A DNA stretch of 64,000 nt from Candidatus Kryptoniota bacterium (GTDB taxonomy: Bacteria > Bacteroidota > Ignavibacteria > Kryptoniales > JAKASW01). The notes beneath the pieces were generated by a model that made no database searches, was not told the origin of the DNA, and was given only the letters and a program-made list of their open reading frames with translations. The stretch lies in assembly GCA_036567965.1 (NCBI GenBank), contig DATCTN010000021.1, positions 8,906 through 72,905 of the forward strand, in the 5' to 3' direction. Below are positions 4,242 to 26,907 of the stretch, in pieces (position 1 is the first letter of the stretch; each line of letters opens with the position of its first letter). The translations under genes and the position numbers were made by a program.

Positions 4242-4883
4242 CACCCCTTCAGCTGCTGTGCATTTAGTTCACTGGTGAGTATGCCGCGAGTATTTACCCG
4301 CCAGTTGACGACTACACGGTATGCTTTCACCGGGAGGTAAGCTGGCATGCTGGATGTGCAACAGGGGGAAATGGTGCCCGCACACAAATATTGGTTGCAC
4401 CGGAAAAACTCTGAACTGAATCAAAAAGTAGTCTGTCTCACAAACCGTTTGGGTCCCATCCGAAGTAATCTTAGATAATGTCCTGCCCGTTTAGGTTCAA
4501 CTTATAGGGTGGAACAGAAGCAGCTAGCGGGGAAGATGAGGGTACTATTTTGCGGCGAAAGTGGTTGTGGAAATATTTTTGTTTTGGGACTTTTATATGT
4601 TTCCTAATAATTTGAGCGCATTCAGGGGAAGTCATTATGCTGATCTGTGGGCGAGCACACATCCTGCTCCGGAGAAAGCTTAGTGGATTGCAGTTCACGG
4701 ACTGGGGAAGTATCTTCAAATGTCAGACGGGCAGCGTCCATAATAACAAAGGCGACCTCCTTCTGGATTCCGTGAGTCGAGGATAGGTCGCATGTCAAAT
4801 GCAGCGAAGCACAACAACGGCTCAAGTCGGGGCGCATCACTCCCACCTTTTTGCCGCTCGTAACTCTCGAGAGGAGACACATC

Positions 4884-6695: not shown

Positions 6696-6742
6696 CGGGA
6701 ATCCCGGTTAAAATCAATTGCGCTTGGGAAAGGAAACGGGTC

Positions 6743-8107: not shown

Positions 8108-8153
8108 GGGGGCGAATCGTCATTTACAATTATTCTTCAGAAAAAATTAGGAG

Positions 8154-9110
8154 ATGCTTGTGAAACCATTTTTCCCGGTTTTGTTTATCTGCGCGACTCT
8201 TCTTGCATTTGAAAATGTTTTTGCCCAGACAGGGTCAGATTATTATTTGCCGCTGCGAATAGGAAACTACTTGAAATTCCATGCTGATGAAGGTCCACTT
8301 GGGTGGGCCGCGAGAACTACGACGCACACCATTGAAGGAACAGATTCCATTTCCGGAAAAGTCTATTTCAGGGAAAAGGACAGTGAGGAAGCAGATAATG
8401 GTATCTTCAGCGATGTGTTCAATGTCCTCTGGCTCAGTGAGGATTCGGCAAGGAATATACTTGTCGCGGCAGTCGGCGAAGAATCATCCGACATAGATTC
8501 GGCAACCATCCTTCCTAGCCCGGGCCCTTTTTTCCCCACTCAGGGTCTTGTTCCTGGCTACTCGATCCGGTATCCGTATAGCAACTATTTCATGGTAGAT
8601 TCCACTATCAGCGACACCGCGACAGTTGGGACGCCTGCAGGGACGTTTACGAATTGCGTCATGCAAAGTGAAACGCACTATGATAGTCTTGGGAAGGTCG
8701 TCTTCCTGGAATACCATTATTACGCGCACGGAGTCGGAATGGTTCTCAACCAGCGGGTCAAGCCTGATAGCAACGCGCACACCGATTATCTCATTCAATA
8801 TTCCGCCGTTACGGCTGTCCATGAAAAGAATGCCGCGGATGATCCACGCAGTTTCAGTTTGTTACAGAACTATCCGAACCCGTTTAATCCATCAACCACG
8901 ATCAGCTATCGGGTTGAAATGCGCAGCCAGGTTAGTCTGAAAGTTTACAACGTACTCGGTGAAGAAGTAGCAACTCTGGTAAACGAAACCAAAGATCCGG
9001 GTGAATACAGCGTGAAGATGGACGCGTCGAGATTCTCCAGCGGCGTCTACTTCTATCGGCTTTTTTCGGGAAATTACGTATCCACGAAGAAAATGTTGAT
9101 GACAAAATGA
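8154..9110 (+). CDS. Secreted protein with a T9SS C-terminal sorting domain
   Basis: Signal peptide ...PVLFICATLLAFENVFAQ. C-terminus LQNYPNPFNPSTTISY...GVYFYRL...KKMLMTK. The GTG at 8160 has better spacing to the AGGAG and is an alternative start. Confidence 0.85.
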   Translation: MLVKPFFPVLFICATLLAFENVFAQTGSDYYLPLRIGNYLKFHADEGPLGWAARTTTHTIEGTDSISGKVYFREKDSEEADNGIFSDVFNVLWLSEDSARNILVAAVGEESSDIDSATILPSPGPFFPTQGLVPGYSIRYPYSNYFMVDSTISDTATVGTPAGTFTNCVMQSETHYDSLGKVVFLEYHYYAHGVGMVLNQRVKPDSNAHTDYLIQYSAVTAVHEKNAADDPRSFSLLQNYPNPFNPSTTISYRVEMRSQVSLKVYNVLGEEVATLVNETKDPGEYSVKMDASRFSSGVYFYRLFSGNYVSTKKMLMTK

Positions 9111-12335: not shown

Positions 12336-12881
12336 ATACTCGTATAGAATAATTGAGCGGCATAGGAGTGTTCGTGAATAACAATGTGTCATTTTCAAAT
12401 GCGATAGAGCACTCAACGATGGGACATATTGGTAGCGTCAAAGTAGGCCGCTACCCAAGATTATCATAATTTGCTATTGACGGGTACAGGGGATAAATTT
12501 AGTGGAAGTGTGATCATGTCAGGAAAAGGGTGTGGACAAGCAAACTGTCAAAGGAGCCCCTAAGAACTGCGTATCCGGGCGAAGAAATAACAAAAGGGAG
12601 GGCAAGAATTCGCCTGTGGCGGACGTCAGCCCCCCCGAAGTGACGCTCTACAATCGGCCATCGATGGCTGCCTGCGCCGCGGGTTCAATCCCTCTTCCAA
12701 TCATTTCAATACACGTCCCAACAAATTCACTTCAAGACCTCCATTACTATCGGTGCAGGCGGTATGAGATATGAGGGATCGAAGTGCTGCGTGATTTCAT
12801 GAGACGGAGAAGTCCGGCGACAGATGTCCGGGATCTGATCCTGGGGCAAGAGACTACCACGATAAGAATGAGGTAGCAGCA

Positions 12882-13247
12882 ATGAGGACCATGTTATGTA
12901 TAATCCTCGTATTCGTCTCTGTCATCTTCGTCGCAGGACTGCCTGTATCCATCGCACAAGACAGATGCAGAGCGAGTGCAGCGATCGTTTTGATAGTGCT
13001 TCCTTCCGCACAAGTCGAAGACGGTCTGATCGAGAAGACATTTGATTCTTGTTTCGCACGGGGTGTCGACCTTTTTCGGAATGCGGGAATAACTTTTCAC
13101 GTGTCGGGCGGATTTACACTTCAAATGAAATTTTTGGGGAGAGCGGCCACTTTCGGGATGCAATTCCGTAAACACGGAATCAGGTCCCTCGTGGAGAGAG
13201 AATTCAACAATGTTACGACCGTCGAGATAGTCCACCTCGAAGGCTGA
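12882..13247 (+). CDS. Possible small secreted protein (strand uncertain)
   Basis: Signal-like N-terminus MRTMLCIILVFVSVIFVAGLPVSIAQ and purine-rich first codon positions. An equally long antisense ORF (12894..13256) exists. Confidence 0.3.
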   Translation: MRTMLCIILVFVSVIFVAGLPVSIAQDRCRASAAIVLIVLPSAQVEDGLIEKTFDSCFARGVDLFRNAGITFHVSGGFTLQMKFLGRAATFGMQFRKHGIRSLVEREFNNVTTVEIVHLEG

Positions 13248-13323
13248 CAATTTCAACGCGCAGAATCATCGTGAATGTAATTTGAATGATACGCAGAAGG
13301 AGTATAACAATTTGAGATCGGTC

Positions 13324-15102
13324 ATGAATACTATGCCGTTAGCACCCTCCTCTTGCGCGGGAGGACTGAGCCGCGAAGGGAAGGCACGCAAAGTTTGCTT
13401 CGGAAAATTACTCGTTGAAGCGGGCTTATTCCTGATCCTCTTCGGAAGGATTTCATTCGCTCAAGGAGTAGGAATCAGCGAAACAACAATCACTCCTGAT
13501 CCGACGGCCATACTTGAGCTGAGATATTCGTCCGGAACGTTCAAGGGATTCCTGGCACCTCGGATGACTACTGCGAATAGAACCAGTATTAGTAGTCCGG
13601 CGGAAGGGCTTCTGGTTTATGATGTGAGTACCAAATCCTTTTATTATTACGACGGCGGCTGGATTGCGATTTCCGCAACCAACTCTACTCTTGGTGTAGC
13701 AAATGGCGGCACTGGTCTATCGTCGATTACAGCAAACGACCTGATGTATGGCAACGGAACAAGTGCAGTCTCCCTACTGACGCCGGGAGGTACGACCGGT
13801 GCGCTCCTGATGAACACTGTGTCGGGAGCACCCAGCTGGTCGCTCCTGAGTTCTTTGCCTAGCAGTGCGGGCGCTTTGCCTATCGCCAACGGCGGGACAA
13901 ATTCGAGTGCCGCACTGTCGGGATCATCCATCATGATCTCAAACGGTACCGCGGTTGTACAAGGCGCTGCAGGAACAACAACACAAGTCTTACATGGCAA
14001 CGCCGGCGGAGCCCCGTCTTACAGTCAAGTCAGTTTGTCCGCAGACGTTGCCGGCAACTTACCTGTTACAAATCTTAATAGCGGAACAGGCGCTTCCGGC
14101 ACCACTTTCTGGCGCGGCGATGGAACATGGGCTACTGTTGCAGCTAGTGGTGGTGGTACGGTGACTACTTTTTCAGCTGGCACCTTAAGTCCGTTGTTCA
14201 CGACATCGGTAGCAACACCAACAAGCACGCCTGCTCTGTCATTCACTCTTTCAAATGCCGGAGCCTACTCTATTTTGGGTAATAGGTCCAACGCAAGCGC
14301 CGCGCCTTCTTACACGTCAACTCCGATTGTGAGCACTATGGGGTTGGCGGGAAGTACAAGCGGAGTGATAACCATGCAGCCCCAGACAGCAGCCGGCACT
14401 TACAACTTCAATTTTCCGACAAGCGCCGGCACATCCGGTCAGCCACTAATAAGTGGTGGAGGTGGCGCTAACGCAATGACATTTGGAACATTGGGCGTTG
14501 CCGCGGGCGGAACAGGATTAATCTCAGGAAACTCGGGAGGAATACTCGGATTTACGGCTGCGGGAACAATTGCCTCTTCAGCTGCTCTCACCGCTAACGG
14601 AGTTGTGATCGGAGGCGGTGCAGGGGCGACGCCGACATCTACAGCTGTGGGAACCACTGGTCAGGTGTTGACGGGGACCGGTGCCGCACCAACTTGGCAA
14701 GCGCCCATCACGGCGACGACTTCCTCAGGCGCCCTTGGTGCTGATGTCACGATGGTGACGGCAGGAACATGGTACACTGGCGCTTCCATAACCCCGGGCG
14801 CAGGTACTTGGCTCATCACCGGGTCAATTACAATGGGTAAAGCAAACGGGACAGCTGACGTGGAATACGCCAGGATTTGGGATGGTACGACAGTTTACGC
14901 GTCAGGTCAGGCTCACAATCCTGGAGTCAATCCTCACGCGACGACTATTACAATGACTTGCACGGTGACGACTGGAGCCGGCACCACGGTATCTGTTCAA
15001 GGGACATCTTCAGTAGCGAATGGTTTGATTAAAGCGGCATTAACTGGGAACGGCCAGGGTAACAATGCAACCAGGATTATTGCTGTCAAAATTGCTCCGT
15101 GA
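13324..15102 (+). CDS. Tail-fibre-like surface protein
   Basis: Hydrophobic leader ...LFLILFGRISFAQ. The N-terminal module AILELRYSSGTFKGFLAPRMTTANRTSISSPAEGLLVYDVSTKSFYYYDGGWIAI is typical of Bacteroidota tail-fibre-domain proteins. It has repeated ANGGTG/N and GQVL..G..GAP.W units and an FWRGDGTW motif. There is no T9SS sorting domain. Confidence 0.7.
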   Translation: MNTMPLAPSSCAGGLSREGKARKVCFGKLLVEAGLFLILFGRISFAQGVGISETTITPDPTAILELRYSSGTFKGFLAPRMTTANRTSISSPAEGLLVYDVSTKSFYYYDGGWIAISATNSTLGVANGGTGLSSITANDLMYGNGTSAVSLLTPGGTTGALLMNTVSGAPSWSLLSSLPSSAGALPIANGGTNSSAALSGSSIMISNGTAVVQGAAGTTTQVLHGNAGGAPSYSQVSLSADVAGNLPVTNLNSGTGASGTTFWRGDGTWATVAASGGGTVTTFSAGTLSPLFTTSVATPTSTPALSFTLSNAGAYSILGNRSNASAAPSYTSTPIVSTMGLAGSTSGVITMQPQTAAGTYNFNFPTSAGTSGQPLISGGGGANAMTFGTLGVAAGGTGLISGNSGGILGFTAAGTIASSAALTANGVVIGGGAGATPTSTAVGTTGQVLTGTGAAPTWQAPITATTSSGALGADVTMVTAGTWYTGASITPGAGTWLITGSITMGKANGTADVEYARIWDGTTVYASGQAHNPGVNPHATTITMTCTVTTGAGTTVSVQGTSSVANGLIKAALTGNGQGNNATRIIAVKIAP

Positions 15103-15173
15103 ACGGTATCTGGTTGTGAATGCATATTTGATTCAGGCGCCCAAACGGAGGCGGCCCGGCAGATGGAAGAATA

Positions 15174-17456
15174 TTGAGGACACTTGAAAGATTGATTCAA
15201 CTAATCAAAGCCGACGGAAAGTTTAATTTCTCAATAGCACCATATCTAGTCGGTGCTTTGTTGATCTGGCTCCCGAATGTCTCGATGGGACAGGTGCTAT
15301 CCAACAACAGCGCCGTTGTGTCACTGACTTCTGGCGCCTTCGTCGTCTCTATGGATGTCGGAAACGCGAGCGGCACAATAGCGAACAACGGGACTATTCA
15401 ACTCAGCGGGTCTTATACAAACGGCGGCACGACCAGCGGAAATGGAACATTTCAGCTCGGCGGTGACTGGACCAACAATGGAACCTTTTCCGCGGGATCA
15501 GGAACCTTGACATTTAACGGCACGGCATTGCAGCATATGGGCGGTTCGGCGTCAGCCCAGAACTTCAATAATGTAATCGTCAGTAACTCATCCGGCGTAG
15601 TGCTTGGTGGTTCTGGAAGTTTCACCATTAACGGCTCAATGACAATTAGCAACGGCTCGAGTTTAGATCTTCCAACCGGGCCTGTACTTACATTTGGATC
15701 CGGCGCATCCATTACAACAACCGGAACTGGAAAGATAATTCTTCAGTCCGGTTCGAATTATGTAAATCTCAGCAGCAGCGCGCCGACGCTTCAGGCGCAA
15801 ACCAATATCGCAGGGAGTGCAGGATGGCGAATGCTGGCGTCTCCCGACAATGTCACCGTCGGTTCAATGTTCGCAGCTCCTTTCGTCACACAGGGCTTCA
15901 CGGGTTCGAGCTATCCTTCATTACAACCCAACCTCCTCTGGTGGGATGAGACGAGCCAGGGCTCTTCACTCCAGGCGTGGAGAGATCCATCTTCGACTTC
16001 CGATGGCGTGGCGCTCGGTAGAGGCTATATGTTCTATGTGTTCGACGGGGCACAGAGATCAGATACCGCCAGCATCAATTATAGTGACGTACTTCCACTC
16101 ACGATGAGCGCGTCGGGTACGGAGCAGCCACTGACCACGGCATTTGATTTTGGCGTAACTGCCACCACACGATCAGCCGGCGGGCCGTCAGACACAACGT
16201 ACGTCGATACTAATGCCGTGGATTACGGATGGAACCTTGTCGGCAATCCGACTCCCTCGACGATCGACTGGGATGCTTCTCCGGGTTGGACAAAGGCGAA
16301 TATGGATGGGACTATTTACATCTGGGATCCGGCCGACACGAGCGGTGGATACAAGACCTGGAATGGGACAACCGGGAACCTCGGCAGCGGACTTGTTGCG
16401 CCATTTCAGGCTTTCTGGGTAAAGGCGAACGGCGCCGGTCCGTCTCTGAAATGCGACAATGGTGTGAAGTCGACCGGCGGCAGTTTTCTCGGGAAGATAG
16501 CAATGGATTCGGCAAAGGGGAGTCCACTTAAAAAGTTGACTAAGGATTCATCGCCGGTGCATTCTCTTGTGAAGGTTGCCAGCGATTCCACGGCCCGGCC
16601 GCCTGTTCTTCGTCTCGATCTCCTAAGCAATGGAATACAAACCCAAGCGTACTTTATGTTCAGAGATGCGGGAAAACTGACGTACGATCCGTACGACGCA
16701 TTTAGTTTAGTCCCGCCGTCCGACAAGTATTTGATTCTGTATTCCGTCGCCGGACAAGGCCAGCCTGCGATGCAAATTCAGGATCTGCCGGACACCGGCT
16801 TCGCTGATCCATTCATCTTGCCACTGTACGTCGGGGGAACAAAAGGAGGACAACCGCTCGACGGATCGTTCACGCTGCGCTGGACTTTCGAAGGACAAAT
16901 TCCGTCCGGTTGGAGTATCGCGCTCATGGATGATTCCACGGGCAAAGCCTACAACATGGTACAGGAGGGCGAGTTGACATTTCGATACAACACGCCGCCC
17001 GATCTGGTTCCGTCAGGCGGTAATTTCTTGCAGAAGAAATCTAGTCTTGCATCTACCCAACGATCGCCGGCTGTGCTGCCACGGCCGGTCGTACATACCG
17101 TGCCTGTCTCTAAGTTGTCGAAGGGCGCCGGTACATCGATCCGTTTCCGTGTCGCAATTTCGGCGCGCAACGATTTCGCGGGCTATTTGCCCAGCACTCC
17201 CGACCTGGCACAGAACTATCCGAACCCGTTCAATCCGTCCACGAACATTTCTTTCTGGGTTCCGTCCCCCACTCGAGTAACGATCCAGGTGTTCAATGTC
17301 CTGGGTCAGAGGGTCGCCACCGTCACGGACCGGGAGTATCCGACGGGCAAATATTTAGTTACATGGACCGCAAGGGGCGCGGCGAGTGGTGTCTATTTTT
17401 GCCGTATGATTGCTGGAACTCATGTGCAAACAAAAAAGATGGTCCTGGTCCGATGA
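15174..17456 (+). CDS. Large Gly/Ser/Thr/Asn-rich surface protein with a T9SS C-terminal sorting domain
   Basis: 760-aa ORF with a TTG start whose exact position is uncertain. The N-terminal third is G/S/T/N-rich and beta-helix-like. C-terminus AQNYPNPFNPSTNISF...GVYFCRM...KKMVLVR. Its stop overlaps the next start (ATGA at 17453-17456). Confidence 0.8.
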   Translation: MRTLERLIQLIKADGKFNFSIAPYLVGALLIWLPNVSMGQVLSNNSAVVSLTSGAFVVSMDVGNASGTIANNGTIQLSGSYTNGGTTSGNGTFQLGGDWTNNGTFSAGSGTLTFNGTALQHMGGSASAQNFNNVIVSNSSGVVLGGSGSFTINGSMTISNGSSLDLPTGPVLTFGSGASITTTGTGKIILQSGSNYVNLSSSAPTLQAQTNIAGSAGWRMLASPDNVTVGSMFAAPFVTQGFTGSSYPSLQPNLLWWDETSQGSSLQAWRDPSSTSDGVALGRGYMFYVFDGAQRSDTASINYSDVLPLTMSASGTEQPLTTAFDFGVTATTRSAGGPSDTTYVDTNAVDYGWNLVGNPTPSTIDWDASPGWTKANMDGTIYIWDPADTSGGYKTWNGTTGNLGSGLVAPFQAFWVKANGAGPSLKCDNGVKSTGGSFLGKIAMDSAKGSPLKKLTKDSSPVHSLVKVASDSTARPPVLRLDLLSNGIQTQAYFMFRDAGKLTYDPYDAFSLVPPSDKYLILYSVAGQGQPAMQIQDLPDTGFADPFILPLYVGGTKGGQPLDGSFTLRWTFEGQIPSGWSIALMDDSTGKAYNMVQEGELTFRYNTPPDLVPSGGNFLQKKSSLASTQRSPAVLPRPVVHTVPVSKLSKGAGTSIRFRVAISARNDFAGYLPSTPDLAQNYPNPFNPSTNISFWVPSPTRVTIQVFNVLGQRVATVTDREYPTGKYLVTWTARGAASGVYFCRMIAGTHVQTKKMVLVR

Positions 17457-17965
17457 CAAGATTCTTCGGATGCCTCATCACGGTATGCGTGCTGACGTGC
17501 GCCGTCGCTTGCGCTCAATCGCTAAAGGCGCATCAGGCAATAGCAACGATCACTGCTACTGCAACTGTGGTAGGAAATCTCGACATGATCGTGATGAAAG
17601 ATCTCGAATTCGATATTTCCACTCTCTCGCCTACTGAAATTGTCCTGAATCCGCAAACCGACCCGCGTTCCGGAGAAATCAAGATAGTCGGCAATCCTAA
17701 CGGTCTAGTGCGAGTGACGAACGAAATGGAATCTGTTCTCCAGCACGAGAGTGGCGAATCGCAGCTATACTTCACGTACAACCTGAGCGGAAGTTCGTCC
17801 GATGTCCAGAGCGAATCGACCCTCCTCACACAGAACAATGAAATCAGGCTGAGTGACCGGGGCGTGTATTATGTCTGGATTGGAGGTCAACTCTCGGGCA
17901 TTGAAGACATCATCCCTGGTAATTATGCGATGGACCTTACTATCGAGGTGGAATACCTCCCATGA
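17453..17965 (+). CDS. Pilin-like subunit 1 (SCPU/DUF4402-like)
   Basis: Signal peptide MTRFFGCLITVCVLTCAVACAQ. About 150 mature residues, beta-rich. It ends PGNYAMDLTIEVEYLP, matching the G.Y.G...V.Y tail of spore-coat-U/DUF4402 fimbrial subunits. Confidence 0.6.
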   Translation: MTRFFGCLITVCVLTCAVACAQSLKAHQAIATITATATVVGNLDMIVMKDLEFDISTLSPTEIVLNPQTDPRSGEIKIVGNPNGLVRVTNEMESVLQHESGESQLYFTYNLSGSSSDVQSESTLLTQNNEIRLSDRGVYYVWIGGQLSGIEDIIPGNYAMDLTIEVEYLP

Positions 17966-18576
17966 CTCCTCTCGCACGCACAATCCAACAGATGGGAATG
18001 ATACTTCTGTTGACCGTATTTCAGTGCCGCCAGGGAGCGGCACAAAAAATAAATTTCGGAGCCTATACAACTTCTCAGGGCATCACTTTGAACGTCAGCG
18101 GAGACTTGAACTTCAACGACAAAGAGCCTGTAATCGTCAGCAACAGCAATGAGACTGTGACTATCGCCTTGAACGACAACGAGTCACAGTATATCCAAAT
18201 CGTCGGAGATGCCACAAGGGATATTACGATAACGATTATGGCTCCTTCGTATCTCACCGTCGGTGCGGGTGGTCCGGGCAACCAGGTATCATTCAACTGT
18301 CAATTCGCGTATTCGAACCTTGGATCAGACACTGTGTCAGCCGCAAAAGCAGTTGCGGTCCAGGTACCTTCAGGTTTTACGGCAATTACGCTGCCTATGC
18401 TTCGGCGGGCATCGGGTACACCACTTCCGCCACCGACACCAGCGCACGGTGGTTATACACCTCCCTCCGCGACAGCATATCTATTTCTCTATGGTTCGCT
18501 GGGACCGGTGGGAAATGTTACACCTGGAATTTATTCGGGAACGATCAATGTCAGCGTTGATTACACGACATATTGA
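17962..18576 (+). CDS. Pilin-like subunit 2 (SCPU/DUF4402-like)
   Basis: ATGA overlap with subunit 1. Signal peptide ...ILLLTVFQCRQGAAQ. It ends PGIYSGTINVSVDYTTY. Confidence 0.6.
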   Translation: MTPLARTIQQMGMILLLTVFQCRQGAAQKINFGAYTTSQGITLNVSGDLNFNDKEPVIVSNSNETVTIALNDNESQYIQIVGDATRDITITIMAPSYLTVGAGGPGNQVSFNCQFAYSNLGSDTVSAAKAVAVQVPSGFTAITLPMLRRASGTPLPPPTPAHGGYTPPSATAYLFLYGSLGPVGNVTPGIYSGTINVSVDYTTY

Positions 18577-18586
18577 TGCTAGTAAT

Positions 18587-19165
18587 ATGACAAGCTACGG
18601 ATCGGTCACCGCATGGGTGATCGTGCTGGCCATTGCAGTAATGACACTGACTGCCGGGATTCCACTTGAGAGCGAGGCCCAGGTAAAACCGACTCTCAAG
18701 ATCAAAGTGAACGTCGAATCGTCAGTGGGCATATCAAAGATGGATGCGGGGATGAAGGGTTTGCTTATTGAGGAGTCGCCTTTTCTCAAAGACCTTATCT
18801 CCGGAGAATTTGGTGAGCGCGATACCGTGAGCCTTAGCTCAGGTTACGCGATCTCAGCGTACGAAAACATAAGTGTTCTCGTGACGGTCACGACTCCCGG
18901 GCTGATTAGAGACGGGAACCCGAATTCACCACGGATCACTTGCGGTTACTTGAACGATGGGACTACTTATTTCAGGCGAGCTACAATCACGAACAAGAGT
19001 GCCATAGACTTCCGGTTAAGGAACAACAGTTTATTGAAACGTTCTATGAAGACAAGGAATCCACTTTTTGTGGCATATGTGTTTTTTTTAATCCATCAGC
19101 AAAAGGAGGAAATGGGAAATGAATATCCGTTGCCGATCTCGACCGTAACTGTCGAGTTCATCTAG
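18587..19165 (+). CDS. Pilin-like subunit 3 (divergent)
   Basis: The ATG lies 10 nt after the subunit 2 stop. Signal/TM segment AWVIVLAIAVMTLTAGIPLESEAQ. It ends PISTVTVEFI. Family assignment is weaker than for the other three subunits. Confidence 0.45.
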   Translation: MTSYGSVTAWVIVLAIAVMTLTAGIPLESEAQVKPTLKIKVNVESSVGISKMDAGMKGLLIEESPFLKDLISGEFGERDTVSLSSGYAISAYENISVLVTVTTPGLIRDGNPNSPRITCGYLNDGTTYFRRATITNKSAIDFRLRNNSLLKRSMKTRNPLFVAYVFFLIHQQKEEMGNEYPLPISTVTVEFI

Positions 19166-19250
19166 GAAAGATGATCCTTGAGGAAAGATTTTTCCGCAAA
19201 GAGAAGAAATAATTTTGAACAACAAATAACCAAGTACAAAGGAGGTACTT

Positions 19251-19802
19251 ATGTTGCGTAAACTGCAATTCGCCGCGCTCATCGCGATTGTCACGATGAT
19301 ATGCAGCGAGAACTCTTTCGCGCAAACGGGTTATGCGAAGACCCAGAATATTAACGCAAGCGCGAATATCTTTGCTACAATCACCCTTGCTTCTGCCGCA
19401 AATGTTGACTTCAGTAATATCAACGTGGGGCAGATACCGACGATAGATCCAACCGTAGCAGCATCAAGTTGGACAAACGTCGGAGCAAGTGCCACGCTCG
19501 GAGGATTCACGGTCGCAGGAAGTAATGGTGCGAACGTCACTGTGTCTTGGACAACCCAAGACCTGAGTGATGGCGCGTCCCATTCTGTGACATACTCCCC
19601 GTTGGTTTCCTATGGGGCCACTCAGGTGGGATCTACGTCAGTTGCCAGCGGAACGACGCACATACCCTTGGGGGCGACAGCAATGCCACTGTACATAGGC
19701 GGTCATCTGTACCAGCAGGGCACGTCAAACCCTGTTCCAGCAGCCCAGACGGCCGGAACATACACCGGCACCGTGACCTTCACCGTCGATTATGTACTGT
19801 GA
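19251..19802 (+). CDS. Pilin-like subunit 4 (SCPU/DUF4402-like; possible major subunit)
   Basis: Strong RBS (aaaggagg). Signal peptide MLRKLQFAALIAIVTMICSENSFAQ. VDFSNINVGQ resembles the DUF4402 L.FG motif. It ends AGTYTGTVTFTVDYVL. Confidence 0.7.
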   Translation: MLRKLQFAALIAIVTMICSENSFAQTGYAKTQNINASANIFATITLASAANVDFSNINVGQIPTIDPTVAASSWTNVGASATLGGFTVAGSNGANVTVSWTTQDLSDGASHSVTYSPLVSYGATQVGSTSVASGTTHIPLGATAMPLYIGGHLYQQGTSNPVPAAQTAGTYTGTVTFTVDYVL

Positions 19803-19983
19803 AGAAGACGTAATGCGCGATTCATTTCCAGTTGAATGAAAGGCGCGAGGGGAGGCCCTTTTGCAGAGGGCTTCCCTTGTTTTTACCAAGTTCAGAGATT
19901 CGTTCATATGGATGCTCTCTCGGTGGCAGGTGTCAATTGCATCGGGTCCGGCGGTTTAACTTAGAATACATTGGAGGACGCTC

Positions 19984-20835
19984 ATGAAACACATGATCAG
20001 AAGTTCAGCTTTGGCAGCGACAATCATCAATTTGATAATGTTTTCTTTCGGAGTAGAAGCTTCGTACTCCCAGGTTAGTGTAGCTCCGTCGTCAGTCTTC
20101 ATTCACGGCAAAGGCGGCATCGGCAACCTTTACATAACGAACAACTCTTCAACCCCACAGGAAATCAGCATAGACTTCACTTTTGGGTATCCGGGCGCAG
20201 ACAGTGCAGGGAACCCGGTGATGAACTACAACGATACTATTGCAGCCCAAGCTTATGCCCTGAATCCATTTATAAAGGCATATCCGAAAGCTTTTACTCT
20301 GAACCCTGGCGAAGAGCAGACCGTCAGATTTCAGGTGCGCACGAACGGTTCCGTTAGGAATGCTTTTTATTTTACAAGAGTAAAAGTCACTTCGAATCAA
20401 AAATCTGCAGAGATCGAAAGAAAACAGAGCGACTCGGTAGCAGCTCAAGTCAGATTCAGGTTTAATCAGATACTTCCCGTTTTCTATCAAAAGGGAGATG
20501 TTTCGACAGGCTTGACAATCCACGACGTAAGCACTCTGATCAATAATGATACGCTTGAGGCTGTTGCGGATGTCGAGCGCACTGGGACTGCACCCTTCAT
20601 CGGAAGCGTCAGAGCGGAGCTTTTTTCTCCTGCAAATGAAAGGGTAGCACTATTCGAATCAACCATCTCAATCTATTTTAGAATGAAAGACAAGATGGAA
20701 CTTGACCTGTCCAAGGCAGGAAAAGGGCCGCATCGGTTAGTGCTGACATATGAGACGAAACGCTCAGACGTCTCAGCGGAGGACCTGCTGCAGACACTCC
20801 CGGTATCAAAAGAAGTAACAGTGAATCTTCCGTAA
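19984..20835 (+). CDS. Putative periplasmic pilus chaperone (PapD-like)
   Basis: Signal peptide, then VSVAPSSVFIHGKGGIGNLYITNNSSTPQEISIDF, which resembles the first beta-strands of PapD-family chaperones (v.v.P.r......l.v.N.s....). It sits between the subunits and the usher-like gene. Confidence 0.55.
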   Translation: MKHMIRSSALAATIINLIMFSFGVEASYSQVSVAPSSVFIHGKGGIGNLYITNNSSTPQEISIDFTFGYPGADSAGNPVMNYNDTIAAQAYALNPFIKAYPKAFTLNPGEEQTVRFQVRTNGSVRNAFYFTRVKVTSNQKSAEIERKQSDSVAAQVRFRFNQILPVFYQKGDVSTGLTIHDVSTLINNDTLEAVADVERTGTAPFIGSVRAELFSPANERVALFESTISIYFRMKDKMELDLSKAGKGPHRLVLTYETKRSDVSAEDLLQTLPVSKEVTVNLP

Positions 20836-21181
20836 TGGGCGCGATGCAGATTCGTGATTGCGAGTCTGCAGATCTCGGCCGAAGCAATCCCATACTAGGA
20901 GCCAGATTGCAGACTGCAGCTATTCCGCTCACTAATTTTGGGCGAGGATGCCTGGAATCTTGAGGGGGCGCCTCATCGCTGAGCTCACCCCGCCTATGGC
21001 AGGGCTTGTCGCAATTAAGGTGTTAAAGCGTTTCACAGCATGCCTTGAAGGGTCGACGGACTACCTTAAAACGTGTCGTACGGTGACCGAGGCGTGACGA
21101 AAGAGTGTAACCGGCAAATGCTTGTCAGGACAATCAGCTTGCGGGTTGAATTGGGATACATCGCCAGTGTGTGACTTGCCC

Positions 21182-24100
21182 ATGTCAGGAGAATCTCGTC
21201 ACGCTGTGGGAGTCGTCCTCGCGGTGCTAGGCATGACATCTGCCTTTTCTTTCCTTGCGCCGTCTCAGTCGTTGAGTCAACAATCTCCGCAATATGAAGA
21301 AGTTGTCTTCGGATTCACTTTAAAAGAACTGGGAAGTTACAATATATCGGTGGCCGTCAAGAACGACAGGATTTACCTTCCCGTTATGGAATTGTTCAAC
21401 ATTTTCGAAGTGTATTTTACGATCGAGGGACAAAACGTCATAAAGGGAACGTACCTCTCTTCAAAATTTCCGCTGGTCATCGATCCGGTAAATAGGATTG
21501 TTACGCTTGGTGATAAAAGATACGGACTTGCACCGGATGAGATTTTTAAAGGTGACATGGATATCTATATGTCCCCGGAAAAATTCGGAGAGATTTTCGG
21601 CGTCAACAGCACAGTTAATATGAACCGGCTTCAGATAATCGCCGAGACTGACAAAGAACTCCCCGCACTCGTTCGCAGGAGAACTCTATTGGAGCGATCG
21701 GAGACGATGAGCACCGCCGTGGTGCCGGTGAAATATCCGCTCAGGTTCGATCGCGAGCGTTCGCTAATCGACGGCGCAGTGCTGGACTATAACATCACTA
21801 ATTCACTGAACGGTCTCTCATCGCAGGCAACCAGCATGACGTTTACCGGCGGAGGAGAAGTCGCGGGAGGCGATGTGCAGGGGAGCCTTATCGCTGGCAC
21901 TGGCCAGACCCCATCATACAGCGACGTTCGCTGGCGCTATGTCGTGCGGGAGAATAAATATTTCAGCTCGTTCGCGGCGGGTCAGATCCTCACAAGCAGT
22001 GAGTTCATCCCGAGGGTCACCGGCATCGCACTCTCGAACGAACCGGTTGAACCGCGAGTCATGTTTGACAACTACGTGGTTGACGGATATACAGAGCCGG
22101 AGTCCGATGTCGAGTTGTATCTTAACGATCGCCTCATCGATTTCCAGCGAGCAGATGCGGCGGGATACTACCGCTTCCAGTTCCCGCTTATGTACGGGAC
22201 GATGCGCTTGGCAGTGAAAACCTTCTCTAAATACGGCGACATCAACGTGGAGGAGAAGCAGGTTCAAGTCCCCTTCTCGTTTGTGCCGGGCGGCGTGCTG
22301 AGTTACGACATCCAAGCCGGGAAGGCGGATGAGAGTACCGTGGCGGCGAAGGATGTGTATTTGGGCGATGCCAATTTTCTTTTCGGCGCCACCAACTGGC
22401 TGACGATCAATGGCGGCCTCGAGCAGAGTCTCAACAGCGGCCTCGGGAAACTCATCTATCATGGTGGATTCTCATCCCGATTGTTCTCACAATACATTGT
22501 CGATATGGATCTTGCGCCAGACGCATATTATCGACTGGACGCAAACACTCTTTTCGCCTCGAACGCGGGCGTGTTCGTCCAGTACGCGAAATACATGTTG
22601 ACTGATACGGTCATCGGCACGATGCCGCAACAGAACGCGAGTCTCGCACTCTACCTGCCGCTCACGTTCATCTCTCCCGGCACGGGGTTCAGGCTCTCCG
22701 AGGATTACATTGATGCGGAGCCGGGCAAACGTCTGTCACCGCGATTCGATCTCTCGACGCGTCTTACCGATGTACAGCTGCTGATAAGTTATAGTGAGGT
22801 GACGAACGGTTCGGGCGTGCGCCCGTTGAACTTTGCCGGCGATGGGCTTGTCGCGGTTACAGCTATGTACTCACTTCCAAGAGGATCAATTCTGCCTGCA
22901 TTCCTGAGGGCTTTTTTGTTGCGCGGGCAGGCAAGCTACGACCTGGGTGCAAAAACCTTCCAGGATGTGACCCTGCAAGCCTCGAAAACGTTCGCTCAGG
23001 TCTTCCAGTTCAACCTGGGAGTCACGCACAATGTTGCTGCCCACCTGACAACTGTTGAGGCCGGACTAATCATGGACCTGGATGTAACGCGCGAATCTTC
23101 GGTCTTTGATGTATCGAGCGGGACCAGCACCTCGCGTCACTCGCTCTACGGTTCGGTAGGAGTCGATCGCAACAGAGTGTCATTTTCAAACCGAGAAGAG
23201 ATCGGGAAGGGCGGCGTCGATGTGATACTGTTCGTCGATAACAATGATAATGGCGTGTATGATGCAGGCGATGAGTTGATCCCCGCGAAAGGTGTCAAGC
23301 TAGATGGCATGGGGAAAGTCGAACTCGGAAGCGACAGTGTCATACACGTGTCGCAGCTGGAAAGCTATTTCAGATACAATCTTGAAGTCGACAGGCAGCA
23401 GATTGATCCTAATCTGGTTCCGACAACTGACAAGTTCTCTTTTGTTGCCGACCCGAATCAATTCAAGCGAATCGAGATCCCGTTTTACCGTGGAGGGACG
23501 ATTTCGGGAACCGTCTATCTTGAAAAAGACGGAAGTCGTACACCGTTAAGCGGAACCCGCGTCATCTTGCGATCGACCGAAGGGACTTACGGCGATACCC
23601 TTCATACGTTTGCCGACGGCGGTTTCTACGCCATGAATATCGCACCCGGGAATTACACCCTCTCGGTGGATTCCACGCAGCTTCAATTCCTCGGGGCGAT
23701 GCAGGAGGACGGTCCCTTGGACCTTACCGTGCATCGTTCTCAAGAGGGTGATGTCATCGATACTCTTGAAATTGTAATTGTAAACCGGGGGTGGAAGATC
23801 AATCTCAACGTGGAAGACGAAGCGCAGAGATTGATTTCGAGACTGAATGAATTGGAAATGAGGTGGGCAGCAGCAAAACAGAGGGGAGACAGTTTGAGAC
23901 AGGCGATAAACGCGGAGGGTGTAGCGGCCGCCGAAAAGCAGATGACGTGGCCGGAAACAAAAACGCCAAACAAATCGGCAGTCGGAGGAAAAGACTTGAT
24001 CACTGATTACCAGAATGCATTGAGGGAATTTGCGCACGAGGATTTTGACGGTGCGGCTGTTGCGCTTCAAGAAATATTGGATCGGAACCCGCCAGATGAT

Positions 24101-24712
24101 ATTACTGACCACTGCCACTACTGGATCGGAGAATGCAAGTATGCGGCGAAGGAATATGGGGAGGCCCTGCGGGAATTCACCGAGGTGCTCAGTTTCGGAT
24201 CATCTGTGAAGAAGGGCGACGCGCAGTTCATGATCGGACGATGTTACGAAAGAATGGGCAAAAGGGATCAAGCAATAGAGGCCTTCCGAATAGTTGTGAG
24301 ACACTATCCGATGAACGAAAATGTCGATAGGGCAAATGAGAACATTGCCAGACTGGTAAAGTACGAAAACGGCTTGGTGGCTTTCAATTCGGAAAATTAC
24401 ACCGATGCAGCAATGGCATTTAGGGAAATTCTGATTGAAAAAGTGCCGGACGACATTGCTGCTCACTGTTATTACTGGATCGGGGAATCGCAATTCGCGG
24501 CACGGAATTATCGGGAAGCGCTTCAGGAATTCCGGAAAATACTCACTTCCAGGCGATCTGTGAAGATAGGGGACGCGCTCTTCATGATCGGCCGATGTTT
24601 CGAGAAGATGGGGGAGAAGGCGAAGGCAAGAGAGACTTTTCAGAAGCTCGTGGAAGACTACCCAATGAATGGAAACGTCAAGACGGCAAAGAAACACCTG
24701 TCCAAATTGTAA
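21182..24712 (+). CDS. Usher-like outer-membrane protein fused to a CarboxypepD_reg-like domain and two CpoB/YbgF-type TPR modules
   Basis: The segment IPRVTGIALSNEPVEPRVMFDNYVVDGYTEPESDVELYLNDRLIDFQRADAAGYYRFQFPLMYGTMRLAVKTFSKYGDINVEEKQVQVPFSFVP parallels the FimD/PapC plug region. GTISGTVYLEKDGSRTPLSGTRVIL...GGFYAMNIAPGNYTL is CarboxypepD_reg-like. The C-terminus has two tandem repeats of about 115 aa (HCHYWIGECKYAAKEY.../HCYYWIGESQFAARNY...) like YbgF/CpoB. The start could instead be the TTG at 21122. Confidence 0.55.
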   Translation: MSGESRHAVGVVLAVLGMTSAFSFLAPSQSLSQQSPQYEEVVFGFTLKELGSYNISVAVKNDRIYLPVMELFNIFEVYFTIEGQNVIKGTYLSSKFPLVIDPVNRIVTLGDKRYGLAPDEIFKGDMDIYMSPEKFGEIFGVNSTVNMNRLQIIAETDKELPALVRRRTLLERSETMSTAVVPVKYPLRFDRERSLIDGAVLDYNITNSLNGLSSQATSMTFTGGGEVAGGDVQGSLIAGTGQTPSYSDVRWRYVVRENKYFSSFAAGQILTSSEFIPRVTGIALSNEPVEPRVMFDNYVVDGYTEPESDVELYLNDRLIDFQRADAAGYYRFQFPLMYGTMRLAVKTFSKYGDINVEEKQVQVPFSFVPGGVLSYDIQAGKADESTVAAKDVYLGDANFLFGATNWLTINGGLEQSLNSGLGKLIYHGGFSSRLFSQYIVDMDLAPDAYYRLDANTLFASNAGVFVQYAKYMLTDTVIGTMPQQNASLALYLPLTFISPGTGFRLSEDYIDAEPGKRLSPRFDLSTRLTDVQLLISYSEVTNGSGVRPLNFAGDGLVAVTAMYSLPRGSILPAFLRAFLLRGQASYDLGAKTFQDVTLQASKTFAQVFQFNLGVTHNVAAHLTTVEAGLIMDLDVTRESSVFDVSSGTSTSRHSLYGSVGVDRNRVSFSNREEIGKGGVDVILFVDNNDNGVYDAGDELIPAKGVKLDGMGKVELGSDSVIHVSQLESYFRYNLEVDRQQIDPNLVPTTDKFSFVADPNQFKRIEIPFYRGGTISGTVYLEKDGSRTPLSGTRVILRSTEGTYGDTLHTFADGGFYAMNIAPGNYTLSVDSTQLQFLGAMQEDGPLDLTVHRSQEGDVIDTLEIVIVNRGWKINLNVEDEAQRLISRLNELEMRWAAAKQRGDSLRQAINAEGVAAAEKQMTWPETKTPNKSAVGGKDLITDYQNALREFAHEDFDGAAVALQEILDRNPPDDITDHCHYWIGECKYAAKEYGEALREFTEVLSFGSSVKKGDAQFMIGRCYERMGKRDQAIEAFRIVVRHYPMNENVDRANENIARLVKYENGLVAFNSENYTDAAMAFREILIEKVPDDIAAHCYYWIGESQFAARNYREALQEFRKILTSRRSVKIGDALFMIGRCFEKMGEKAKARETFQKLVEDYPMNGNVKTAKKHLSKL

Positions 24713-25046
24713 AATACTGATCGTCACAATTGGCCGCCCATAGAATTGTGATGCACCCGGCATTGCACTACTCCTCACATGCAGCGGCGCCCACCCCTCC
24801 ACATTTCCACATAATCACCATAACACATTTTGCACCCGGATGACTCTCTGTTAGCCAGCCTATTCCAACTGGAACCATCCTCGTCTTGAAATGGTTGTCT
24901 ACTATTAATCGAGAAGGACTTTTTTCCTAATCATCGAGTTGCGACATCACTGAACCATGGAGCCAATAGAGACCTGGACATTTGATTCTGACCAGCCTTC
25001 CGCAAAGTTATCACATCCTATCTTACATTAGGAAAGGAATATCGTC

Positions 25047-25317
25047 ATGGGCAAGCTGTCCCTGGGTATTGCAGTGGCAATTTGTGTATCAGCTCCTTAA
25101 GTTTATTCTCAATATTTCCGGAGACAGACCTTCGGACCCTACGGTGGTACAGTTCAATCTATTCTTACAACCGGATCAGACACGGTGTTCACCGGTACTT
25201 ACGGCGGCCTTTTCCGATCTGTTGATGATGCGGCGAGCTGGAGTCTGTCGGGTCACAGCACAGGGTGTATCGGGAGAGAAATTTCTATCCACGAAGAAAT
25301 TGATGCTTGTAAAATGA
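25047..25317 (+). pseudogene. Decayed remnant of a T9SS-secreted propeller protein
   Basis: RBS plus MGKLSLGIAVAICVSAP, then a stop. A second frame reads TGSDTVFTGTYGGLFRSVDDAASWS (Asp-box-like). A third frame ends ...GEKFLSTKKLMLVK, a T9SS sorting-domain tail. The three pieces lie in three frames within 270 bp. Confidence 0.4.
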
Positions 25318-25653
25318 TAAGAGATGGATTCAGGCGGGACTTTCAAGTGCTACTTAATAGTTTAAACATACATATCATGCATAGTCGGTCGAACGAGAAA
25401 TTTGACCGGTCGGATATTTTTTTCAAGATCTGCCCGAGTTCCGTTTGCACATCGCCGTACGGGCGCATAAATTATTCGGTTCGATTTGTTGATGGAAAAA
25501 GTCTCAAAATGAACAGGCTTCTTTTCCGGCGGCTTCATCGTTCGAATTACGGTTCCACGTTTGATTGAGTAGGTTTGATATTTCAGAAATGAACCAGGAT
25601 CAATAGGGCAGCCAGCGGAATCTGAGACCGCGACCTGCCGGAGGAGGATTCAA

Positions 25654-26907
25654 TTGGAAAAGCCCGCTTTCAAGGTATATGGTTATCGGTGGCTTATACT
25701 GCTGGTGTACATGCTGGTCGCAGCATTTAACCAGTTGGTCTGGATAACATTCGCTCCAATCACTGACTCCGCCGCAGCATTCTACGGTGTCTCGCAGCTC
25801 GACATCGGACTTCTCTCGATGAGTTTCATGATTGCTTATCTTGTCGTTTCCATCCCGGCTTCATGGGTGATCGACACGTACGGTTATCGAGTTGCAGTGG
25901 GCATCGGTGCGGCGCTTACAGGCATCTTCGGTTTGATGCGCGGAATGGTCGCGTCGAATTTCACTCTCGTGATGATCGCGCAAATTGGAACGGCAGTGGG
26001 ACAGCCATTTATCCTGAATGCCCTGACAAAAGTTGCGGCCCGCTGGTTCCCAATCCAGGAACGCGCGACCGCGTCTGGACTCGGCTCACTCGCAATGTAC
26101 ATCGGAATACTTGCGGGCCTCGCTCTGACACCTCCCCTTGCGTTAAGCGCAGGGATGACCAACATGCTGATGTACTACGGGATCGGTGCGATTGCCGCCG
26201 CCGTAGTATTCATTCTGCTCGCGCGAGAACATCCCGCGACTCCTCCGGGTCCCCCTGAACTCGAGGAACGCGCGCTCATGTTCGACGGGATGAAACAAAT
26301 TCTGCGGAAGAAAAACTTCATATTCCTCATGGCAATCTTCTTCGTAGGACTCGGTGTATTCAACAGCGTGACAACATGGATCGAGGATATAATTGGTCCC
26401 CGGGGCTTCACTGCAACTCAGGCAGGGAATGCAGGCGGCCTCATGATCGTTGGAGGCATAGTCGGAGCCGTAATACTTCCTACTCTTTCCGACCGTTATC
26501 GAAAGAGAGTGCCGTTCATTATTCTCGGGTTGGCGGGCACTGTTCCGGGACTGCTCGGCATTACCTTCGCGAGTACCGTCGGACTTCTGTACGCTTCATG
26601 TTTCGCGCTTGGATTCTTTCTTTTGAGCTGCGGACCGATCGGGTTTCAATATGGCGCGGAGATCGGTAGGCCGACACCTGAAGGAACTTCTAACGGTCTC
26701 CTCCTCCTCATGGGCCAGATATCGGGAATCGCATTCATTTTCGCCATGGACAGTTTTAGGGTGGGTCCCGCCGGCTCGATGACACCATCTCTGCTCGCAA
26801 TGATCGGGCTTATTATCGTGGGCCTGCTGTTCGCGACAAGGCTCAGGGAGTCGGATCTTGTCGGGAATGTGGCGTTGCAATCGCGACAGGTCTCGGAACC
26901 AACTTGA
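25654..26907 (+). CDS. MFS transporter
   Basis: 417 aa with about 12 hydrophobic segments. TTG start preceded by GGAGGAGG. Substrate unknown. Confidence 0.8.
   Translation: MEKPAFKVYGYRWLILLVYMLVAAFNQLVWITFAPITDSAAAFYGVSQLDIGLLSMSFMIAYLVVSIPASWVIDTYGYRVAVGIGAALTGIFGLMRGMVASNFTLVMIAQIGTAVGQPFILNALTKVAARWFPIQERATASGLGSLAMYIGILAGLALTPPLALSAGMTNMLMYYGIGAIAAAVVFILLAREHPATPPGPPELEERALMFDGMKQILRKKNFIFLMAIFFVGLGVFNSVTTWIEDIIGPRGFTATQAGNAGGLMIVGGIVGAVILPTLSDRYRKRVPFIILGLAGTVPGLLGITFASTVGLLYASCFALGFFLLSCGPIGFQYGAEIGRPTPEGTSNGLLLLMGQISGIAFIFAMDSFRVGPAGSMTPSLLAMIGLIIVGLLFATRLRESDLVGNVALQSRQVSEPT

Follow-up and report, generated by a model that had tools for sequence, protein, structure and literature searches.

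Archaic chaperone–usher (CU) pili have been described from Proteobacteria, Cyanobacteria and Deinococcota (PMC4654587, PMC10104325), and they have also been said to occur in "a wide range of phyla" (PMC9452303). In the Csu locus of Acinetobacter baumannii and the CupE locus of Pseudomonas aeruginosa, several small pilins of the spore coat protein U (SCPU) type are encoded upstream, and the chaperone gene lies directly before the usher gene. Bacteroidota-type bacteria, in the papers that we read, are treated as users of type V (FimA/Mfa) pili and of type IX secretion (T9SS). Type V pili, known from Bacteroidia, are surface fibres as well and polymerise by strand exchange; their pilins are protease-matured lipoproteins that use neither a periplasmic chaperone nor an usher. 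Here we describe a locus with the layout of Csu and CupE in a 64,000-nucleotide stretch of contig DATCTN010000021.1 (the window in what follows) from Candidatus Kryptoniota, which NCBI places in the Fibrobacteres–Chlorobi–Bacteroidetes (FCB) group. We found no description from this group in the published literature that we searched on CU systems, in line with an original prediction, made from the letters of the window and its open reading frames (ORFs), that the lineage is one where such a system is not expected. Structural models and profile comparisons lead us to consider, with a probability of about 0.8, that the locus encodes a deep-branching CU system, archaic and spore-coat-U-like, that assembles as many as four paralogous pilins into a surface fibre. 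What is said below on folds, family relationships, synteny and domain fusions rests on prediction and homology.

The locus occupies positions 17453–24712 of the window and, like the adjoining T9SS gene and the hairpin described below, lies on the + strand. Its six genes encode four paralogous secreted proteins, S1 (17453–17965, 170 amino acids), S2 (17962–18576, 204 amino acids), S3 (18587–19165, 192 amino acids) and S4 (19251–19802, 183 amino acids), followed by a 283-amino-acid protein (19984–20835) and a 1176-amino-acid protein (21182–24712); all six ORFs are present where the original prediction had placed them. The large ORF encodes 1176 residues from the ATG at 21182, the form in public data, and 1196 from a TTG at 21122. 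Our calls for S1–S4 and the 283-amino-acid protein are identical to GenBank entries VIS48_08430 to VIS48_08450 of a "Candidatus Kryptonia bacterium" metagenome-assembled genome (MAG), where these five are named "hypothetical protein" and the large protein "tetratricopeptide repeat protein". In automatic annotation, an occasional single member has received the name "usher" or "PapD", and the individual similarities have therefore not gone wholly unseen. Hydrophobic signal peptides stand at the start of all six proteins. In S1–S4 and the 283-amino-acid protein, cleavage is read before a glutamine: Q30 of the chaperone family shows no variation at all, and Q22 of the subunit family almost none; the large protein has a comparable site (SLSQQ). 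The G+C content of the locus (0.49–0.54) is similar to that of the remaining window, and base composition gives no hint of a horizontally acquired island.

In its AlphaFold2 (AF2) model (mean pLDDT 86.5, from a 57-sequence alignment), the large protein has the architecture of an outer-membrane usher. DSSP assigns to the model an N-terminal periplasmic domain (residues 39–156; 21296–21649), a barrel in which we counted 24 long strands (residues 196–662; 21767–23167) and two C-terminal beta domains (residues 665–770 and 772–868; 23174–23785), the second of which is CarboxypepD_reg/transthyretin-like (PF13620, E 2.2e-6; also matched by 16 of 25 homologues). Between barrel strands 6 and 7, as read from the strand order in the model, lies a six-stranded insert at the position of the plug (residues 294–363, or 314–383 in the 1196-residue numbering; 22061–22270). 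The parallel to the FimD/PapC plug that had originally been drawn for residues ∼300–400 corresponds to this insert, and the model has the 24 long strands that were to be expected of an usher barrel, with an insert at the position of the plug. The insert is the most conserved stretch of the family, with E311, G328, F332, G339 and G352 invariant in or around it.

A Foldseek search of the PDB with the usher model returned FimD or PapC for all of the top 19 matches (E 7e-29 to 7e-10, probability 1.0). Full-length ushers aligned over 720–910 columns, most matches had target-normalised TM-scores of 0.5–0.62, and identities in the structural alignments were 11–14%. The translocation-domain structures 2vqi, 3ohn and 3fip matched at E 1e-13 to 7.5e-16, and chain 3fip_B at 7.3e-10. 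A search of 5.8 billion proteins recovered 63 usher relatives at 21–73% identity, which share a core of ∼870 residues and vary at their C-termini. The Pfam usher model (PF00577) had no match in the window usher at E values up to 1, and the Pfam matches of this protein were confined to a CarboxypepD_reg-like domain and TPRs (tetratricopeptide repeats). It matched five of 25 homologues, all below threshold (best 26.3 bits versus a gathering score of 27.1) and only over profile positions 47–212 of 549, which cover the early barrel and plug.

The AF2 model of the 283-amino-acid protein (pLDDT 85.4) consists of two Ig-like domains (residues 31–170 and 175–282), as in the PapD-like periplasmic chaperones. 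Its Foldseek matches in the PDB include CsuC (E 2.8e-8) and EcpB (3.1e-8), followed by FimC, Caf1M and PapD, all with probability 1.0; SafB, DraB, CfaA, FaeE and CupB2 match as well, and about 40 of the top 50 matches are CU chaperones. The original reading of this protein as PapD-like is thus upheld by a two-domain model. The protein has 77 relatives, several of which already carry the name "P pilus assembly chaperone PapD" in JGI records, and the Pfam PapD_N model matches it below threshold (E 0.032).

One D1-strand proline is invariant throughout the CU superfamily; non-classical (archaic and alternative) chaperones are marked by an arginine in strand F of domain 1 together with a tyrosine and an arginine in domain 2, and classical chaperones by an Arg/Lys pair in domain 1 (PMC4654587). 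In the window chaperone, P101 is invariant and lies at the D1-strand kink between half-strands 97–100 and 103–106. R132, also invariant, lies in the penultimate strand of domain 1 (predicted F1), 31 residues past P101, where the spacing in CsuC is 30. Unlike that of classical chaperones, the first strand (A1) contains no basic residue that could serve as an Arg8-type anchor. R199, Y231, Y256 and R260 are candidate anchor residues in domain 2, and Lys170 at the end of strand G1, which is ∼70% conserved, is a possible equivalent of the second classical anchor (Lys112). The assignment of R132 as a non-classical carboxylate anchor in the model is consistent with this pattern but not proven. A loop of 16 residues (140–155; window ∼20401–20448), modeled with low confidence between the last two strands of domain 1, recalls the long F1–G1 loop of the FGL-type classical chaperones, which assemble thin fibres.

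Profile comparisons indicate that S1–S4 form a family that is homologous to the SCPU/CsuA/B pilins over the whole domain. Whichever of S1–S4 is taken as the query, iterative jackhmmer searches end in one set of ∼250 ORFs in related loci, and profiles of the orthologue groups align with one another in hhalign (S1–S4 99.7%, E 2.7e-26; S1–S2 97.8%; S2–S4 96.7%; S2–S3 94.4%), where controls with reversed and unrelated profiles gave 0.1–0.6%. With signal peptides removed, the subunit family aligned over 137 columns with an SCPU profile built from 87 single-domain representatives of 8244 SCPU relatives (95.9%, E 5.5e-9). An earlier match at 96.8% had been driven in part by the signal peptides; their removal gave 81.7% with a shallow profile and the above value with the deep one. 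Taken by group, S2 (93.5%, E 2.3e-7), S4 (88.4%, 2.8e-6) and S1 (74%, 2.7e-5) align with the SCPU profile directly, and S3 gave no direct signal and is linked only via S2. Against the single CsuA/B sequence, the hhalign match of the subunit profile was not significant (P 0.042) and covered the C-terminal motif only.

In Pfam terms, DUF4402 (PF14352, cut-off 25.2 bits) is approached by S1 (21.2 bits, E 4.7e-4), S2 (17.2 bits, 8.4e-3) and S4 (21.4 bits, 4.1e-4). The same scan found no match for S3, no SCPU (PF05229) match for S1–S4, and none to a FimA or Mfa family. DUF4402 is the only family that recurs among 97 subunit relatives, 54 of which match it at E values of 0.01 or less (best 5.6e-10). 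The subunits had been called highly diverged, and these sub-threshold scores, together with the lack of any Pfam match for S3, agree with that description. A DUF3992 protein that appeared in a PDB profile search with the subunits was set aside as a weak match (E 0.1) that has the C-terminal motif alone in common with them.

The ends of the S proteins are compatible with polymerisation by strand exchange. In all four groups, alternating hydrophobic residues occur right after the signal peptide and again at the C-terminus. In S1 the signal peptide is followed by an N-terminal strand of this kind, whose residues IATITATATVV align with the CsuA/B donor strand TGQVDVKLNIS; the C-termini of the two families align as well. 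The CsuA/B reference used here is identical to PDB 7zl4_A at 155 of 155 positions, and its donor strand is confirmed by the self-complemented construct in PDB 6fm5. The four tails quoted in the original prediction, LTIEVEYLP, INVSVDYTTY, VTVEFI and VTFTVDYVL, are exact. The motif drawn from them, G.Y.G..(T/L)(V/I).V.Y, is present in full in S2 and S4 (S4 tail AGTYTGTVTFTVDYVL), whereas S1, with the tail GNYAMDLTIEVEYLP, has methionine in place of the consensus glycine (GNYAMDLTIEVEY) and S3, the divergent paralogue, retains the terminal alternating strand only (ISTVTVEF). Because the S proteins end 1–3 residues past the conserved F-strand Tyr/Phe, there would be no room for a seventh strand; by homology to the SCPU pilins, the subunits would have an incomplete, six-stranded Ig fold.

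The paralogues differ in detail. S2 carries a conserved Pro-rich insert at residues ∼140–155 (family consensus PPGPPPTP) that is absent from the other paralogues and from CsuA/B and that could form an exposed loop with a role of its own. S4 is tentatively suggested as the major subunit because it is rich in Ala, Thr, Ser and Gly and is encoded by the last pilin gene before a strong hairpin (see below).

The locus is conserved as a unit. Relatives of the usher are present in 344 genomes among 185,579 species represented by one genome each, and the counts, taxa and gene orders given here refer to the best 80 of these 344. The 80 comprise MAGs of Bacteroidota that lie close to the window, together with Ignavibacteriota, Bacteroidales, Lentimicrobiaceae, Saprospiraceae, Chitinophagaceae and, most prominently, Balneolaceae, including the cultured Gracilimonas sp. 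Q87, Aliifodinibius salipaludis WN023 and Fodinibius sp. SL11 as well as a Halalkalibaculum sp.; a Neomarinimicrobiota protein also belongs to the usher family. Chaperone orthologues occur at 73 of the 80 loci and pilin-like ORFs, mostly four or five per locus, at 66. The order of pilins, chaperone and usher that had been predicted for the window holds there and is invariable in the related loci. Taxonomic mapping, which the original prediction had proposed, yields syntenic loci in Bacteroidota, Balneolaceae, Ignavibacteriota and Kryptoniota relatives, and the most distant usher homologue, at 23% identity, has the same gene context. S1 orthologues are found at 56 of the loci, and direct S3 orthologues at seven, with clear ones only in the closest relatives. 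Three loci carry labels from elsewhere (Nitriliruptoraceae, Thioalkalivibrio and Methanofastidiosia for L011, L018 and L021), but their contigs, 3.8–5.5 kb long and from soda-lake sediment bins, are most likely mis-binned and therefore provide no evidence for occurrence outside the FCB group. The ushers on these three contigs are 36–37% identical to the window usher, like those of Bacteroidales.

Beyond its core, the window usher carries a C-terminal extension (23813–24709) that consists of a long helix (residues 878–909), a disordered linker and two YbgF/CpoB-type tetratricopeptide repeat (TPR) modules that run to the end of the protein. The extension scores 135 bits against NCBIfam TIGR02795 (ybgF; cut-off 90) and matches PRK10803 (CpoB) at 6.7e-22 over residues 874–1076 in the 1196-residue numbering, from the coiled coil through the TPR, and the PDB structure of CpoB (6g5s) at 1.6e-8. 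Matches of the usher to the NCBIfam models PorW/SprE, PorE, BamD, GltC and others lie in the TPR region far under their cut-offs, and we regard them as generic TPR similarity. Among 70 homologues with a complete core, 54 have tails of 90–595 residues and 16 have tails of at most 34. The long tails contain a SPOR domain in 29 cases (best 4e-27) and TPR in 15. Peptidoglycan is the ligand of SPOR domains, and CpoB acts together with Tol-Pal and the peptidoglycan synthases. Because two unrelated modules associated with the cell wall occupy the same position, we infer that the assembly platform is tied to the wall; most likely the C-terminal module links it to peptidoglycan or to the Tol-Pal/cell-wall machinery, as an anchor or a localiser. 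Such fusions suggest a mode of anchoring or positioning a pilus platform not previously described for ushers.

A working model of assembly can be outlined from these features. S1–S4, the chaperone and the usher would be exported by Sec and cleaved before the conserved glutamine. In the periplasm, the last strand of chaperone domain 1 (residues ∼156–168) would complete the six-stranded Ig-like fold of each subunit, with Arg132 holding the C-terminal carboxylate of the subunit as in non-classical chaperones. Chaperone–subunit complexes would then dock on the N-terminal domain of the usher, and the plug (residues 294–363) would leave the 24-strand barrel. We infer that polymerisation proceeds by donor-strand exchange, in which each incoming subunit displaces the chaperone strand with its own N-terminal segment of alternating hydrophobic residues. 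The growing fibre would leave via the barrel while the two C-terminal beta domains of the usher hold its base.

Several observations weigh against this interpretation. The locus is known here from genes alone, in an uncultured MAG; none of its proteins passes the Pfam or NCBIfam thresholds for Usher, PapD_N, SCPU or DUF4402; and searches of the PDB by sequence and by profile found no usher, chaperone or pilin. The sequence searches with the usher, chaperone and upstream protein returned TPR proteins or matches to ribosomal proteins L33 and L6 that we rejected as spurious. The locus contains no two-domain tip adhesin like CsuE, and the best single fold match of the chaperone model is a Gram-positive protein, the WxLIP of Enterococcus faecium (E 4.6e-9). 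This last match would suit a cluster that encodes some other surface-protein complex, in which the 283-amino-acid protein is a WxLIP-like surface or periplasmic binding protein. We give that arrangement hardly any credence, since CU chaperones predominate among the top 50 matches and have the higher TM-scores (0.5–0.67 versus 0.41–0.44 for WxLIP, target-normalised), and since the chaperone gene adjoins a gene for a protein of usher fold at almost every locus. WxL proteins, moreover, belong to Gram-positive bacteria. It is also very improbable that the large protein is mainly an envelope-tethering or division factor of the CpoB/SPOR type with a barrel as its anchor, the resemblance of the neighbouring genes to pilus components being incidental or the pilus function lost. 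CpoB/YbgF (TIGR02795) is indeed the only match over a curated threshold, SPOR replaces TPR in relatives, and the GenBank name of the protein refers to its repeats. However, the tail shrinks to 34 residues or fewer in 16 of the 70 homologues while the 870-residue usher core is always kept, and the most conserved stretch of the protein is the plug region. Chaperone and pilin genes are present at nearly all loci across clades in which identity falls from 73 to 23%, which argues for selection on the whole set.

A more substantial alternative, which we nevertheless regard as improbable, is that the CU machinery is real but makes something other than a pilus, with the S proteins secreted to form a surface coat or short oligomers. 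The subunits are homologous to the spore-coat-U family, and the Mcu system of Myxococcus xanthus exports spore coat protein U in this way; in addition, the four subunits are similar, each has a single domain, and a two-domain tip adhesin is missing from the set. Such a product is harder to reconcile with the donor-strand-like N-terminal segment, which all four groups have kept and which can be aligned with the donor strand of CsuA/B; both points imply polymerisation. The SCPU-family members that have been solved, Csu and CupE, are fibres. A surface fibre assembled by the CU pathway thus remains the reading that we favour. If that fibre is adhesive, the adhesion could, speculatively, come from S2 with its Pro-rich insert or from a neighbouring protein that is sorted by the T9SS.

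The gene for this neighbour (15174–17456, 760 amino acids) lies immediately upstream and encodes a T9SS type A C-terminal sorting domain (TIGR04183, 41.4 bits versus a cut-off of 23; Por_Secre_tail, 9.5e-9). It is coupled to the locus by an ATGA overlap of its stop codon with the start of S1 (17453–17456), and S1 and S2 overlap in the same manner. At 33 of 64 loci, homologues that cover residues ∼60–760 of the protein are encoded upstream of the first pilin gene (L001–L003, L008, L016, L026, L055 and L067 are among these loci), within 600 bp in 20 cases. The sorting domain was kept in all seven homologues tested, and three of them have Invasin_D3 Ig-like domains. At some Balneolaceae loci two or three other genes stand in between, and some loci are without the T9SS gene. 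These intervening ORFs of Balneolaceae are conserved and encode about 205, 365–390 or 425–476 amino acids (for example L034 2856–4130, L037 2659–4089, L042 2569–4369, L056 1416–3140 and L039 3434–4543). The T9SS-sorted protein could act alongside the fibre system as an adhesin and would reach the surface by a different secretion route.

A hairpin followed by a T-run (19848–19878) separates the S4 and chaperone genes and resembles a terminator or attenuator. It has a 14-bp G+C-rich stem and a folding energy of −25.1 kcal/mol (z = −3.0). Of 63 related loci, 43 have a hairpin and T-run of −10 kcal/mol or better at the matching position; their sequences are unrelated, and the count is a raw one without an intergenic background rate. 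The hairpin probably serves to keep the pilin transcripts in excess of those for the chaperone and usher. Matches to sigma-70-type promoters and terminator-like elements in the locus were not enriched over shuffled sequences, and we retained only this strong hairpin; no Rfam family matched in window positions 12500–25700. The extent originally given for the locus is right for the six genes; the original prediction did not mention the CpoB-like/TPR tail of the usher, the coupled T9SS gene upstream of its start coordinate or the hairpin after S4.

Other features of the region can be noted. An untranslated gap of ∼350 bp (20836–21181), itself without an Rfam match, separates the chaperone and usher genes in the window and is also seen in the closest relatives, L001 and L003; no such gap exists at Bacteroidales and Balneolaceae loci, where the chaperone gene touches or overlaps the usher gene. 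At a distance of 72 bp upstream of the T9SS gene, positions 13282–15102 encode a 606-amino-acid protein that is rich in Gly, Thr, Ser and Ala and contains repeated motifs like ANGGTG; it has no Pfam or NCBIfam match, and no homologue was found in the flanks of related loci. Further away, three successive genes at 4851–9110 (614, 471 and 318 amino acids) each encode a terminal T9SS type A sorting domain, one of them with BNR/Ycf48-like repeats, and the neighbourhood is rich in T9SS cargo. With at least four window genes whose T9SS sorting domains score above threshold, and with an assembly assigned to a Kryptonia MAG of the FCB group, the genome is, as had been recognized from the letters, a T9SS-bearing one of FCB type.

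If the interpretation as a CU fibre system is correct, such systems would have a wider range than is known, one that takes in Kryptoniota, Bacteroidales, Saprospiraceae, Ignavibacteriota and Balneolaceae, and the pathway would have a deeper origin. The locus family is invisible to curated models, and hundreds of genomes are therefore probably under-annotated for adhesion machinery. Because cultured Balneolaceae carry the locus, the interpretation is experimentally testable. The repeated association with an adhesin-like gene whose product is T9SS-sorted suggests cross-talk of two secretion routes. Extending this idea, one can picture a so far undescribed, FCB-wide clade of CU systems as a composite organelle, in which interchangeable C-terminal modules tie the usher to peptidoglycan or to the Tol-Pal/division apparatus and a co-transcribed, T9SS-exported, adhesin-like protein supplies adhesion. 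We regard this picture as tentative and, at present, rather unlikely. Were it true, fibre assembly would be placed or braced at division sites or poles, because CpoB-like TPR and SPOR domains are known from septum-associated proteins; the T9SS protein would take the role of the two-domain tip pilin of Csu; two outer-membrane secretion pathways would cooperate on one adhesion device; and the CU pathway would predate the split between the FCB group and Proteobacteria.

Comparison with classical Fim/Pap pili shows agreement in the machinery rather than in the subunits. These systems provide the best structural matches for the overall architecture of the window usher, and their chaperones match the fold of the window chaperone too, whereas the window subunits are of the SCPU kind and not Fimbrial (PF00419). 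No archaic usher was among the PDB fold matches of the window usher. The locus differs from type V pili in that it encodes a chaperone and an usher, and from WxLIP systems in that the neighbours of the chaperone gene encode SCPU-like pilins and an usher. For the fusion of an usher to another module, the P-usher CupB3 provides a precedent (PMC4793230). The window usher tail, however, is part of an outer-membrane usher, whereas CpoB and SPOR proteins exist free in the periplasm or in the inner membrane. In CupB3, the added module is an N-terminal POTRA-like domain and not a C-terminal module associated with the cell wall.

The closest described systems are the archaic ones. Homology between the window subunits and CsuA/B extends across the entire domain and takes in the segment of the N-terminal donor strand and the G.Y....V.V.[YF] C-terminus. 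Like the non-classical chaperones (PMC4654587), the window chaperone has two domains in its model, the invariant proline and an invariant arginine in the predicted F1 strand, and like the archaic ushers, the window usher is predicted to have a 24-strand barrel and a plug. The differences from Csu and CupE are nevertheless considerable. The window proteins have no SCPU, PapD_N or Usher match above threshold, and the subunits are nearer to DUF4402 than to SCPU in Pfam terms. The tip adhesin represented in Csu by the two-domain CsuE has no counterpart in the window locus. The usher has gained a C-terminal CpoB-like/TPR module (SPOR in relatives), the locus is coupled to an upstream gene for a T9SS-sorted, adhesin-like protein, and the hosts found here belong to the FCB group and not to Proteobacteria, Cyanobacteria or Deinococcota. 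The proposed archaic (sigma) placement of the locus is supported by the subunits and by sequence features of the chaperone. What appears new is that CU systems form a deep clade in the FCB group, with a distinctive usher architecture and a T9SS partner that recurs.

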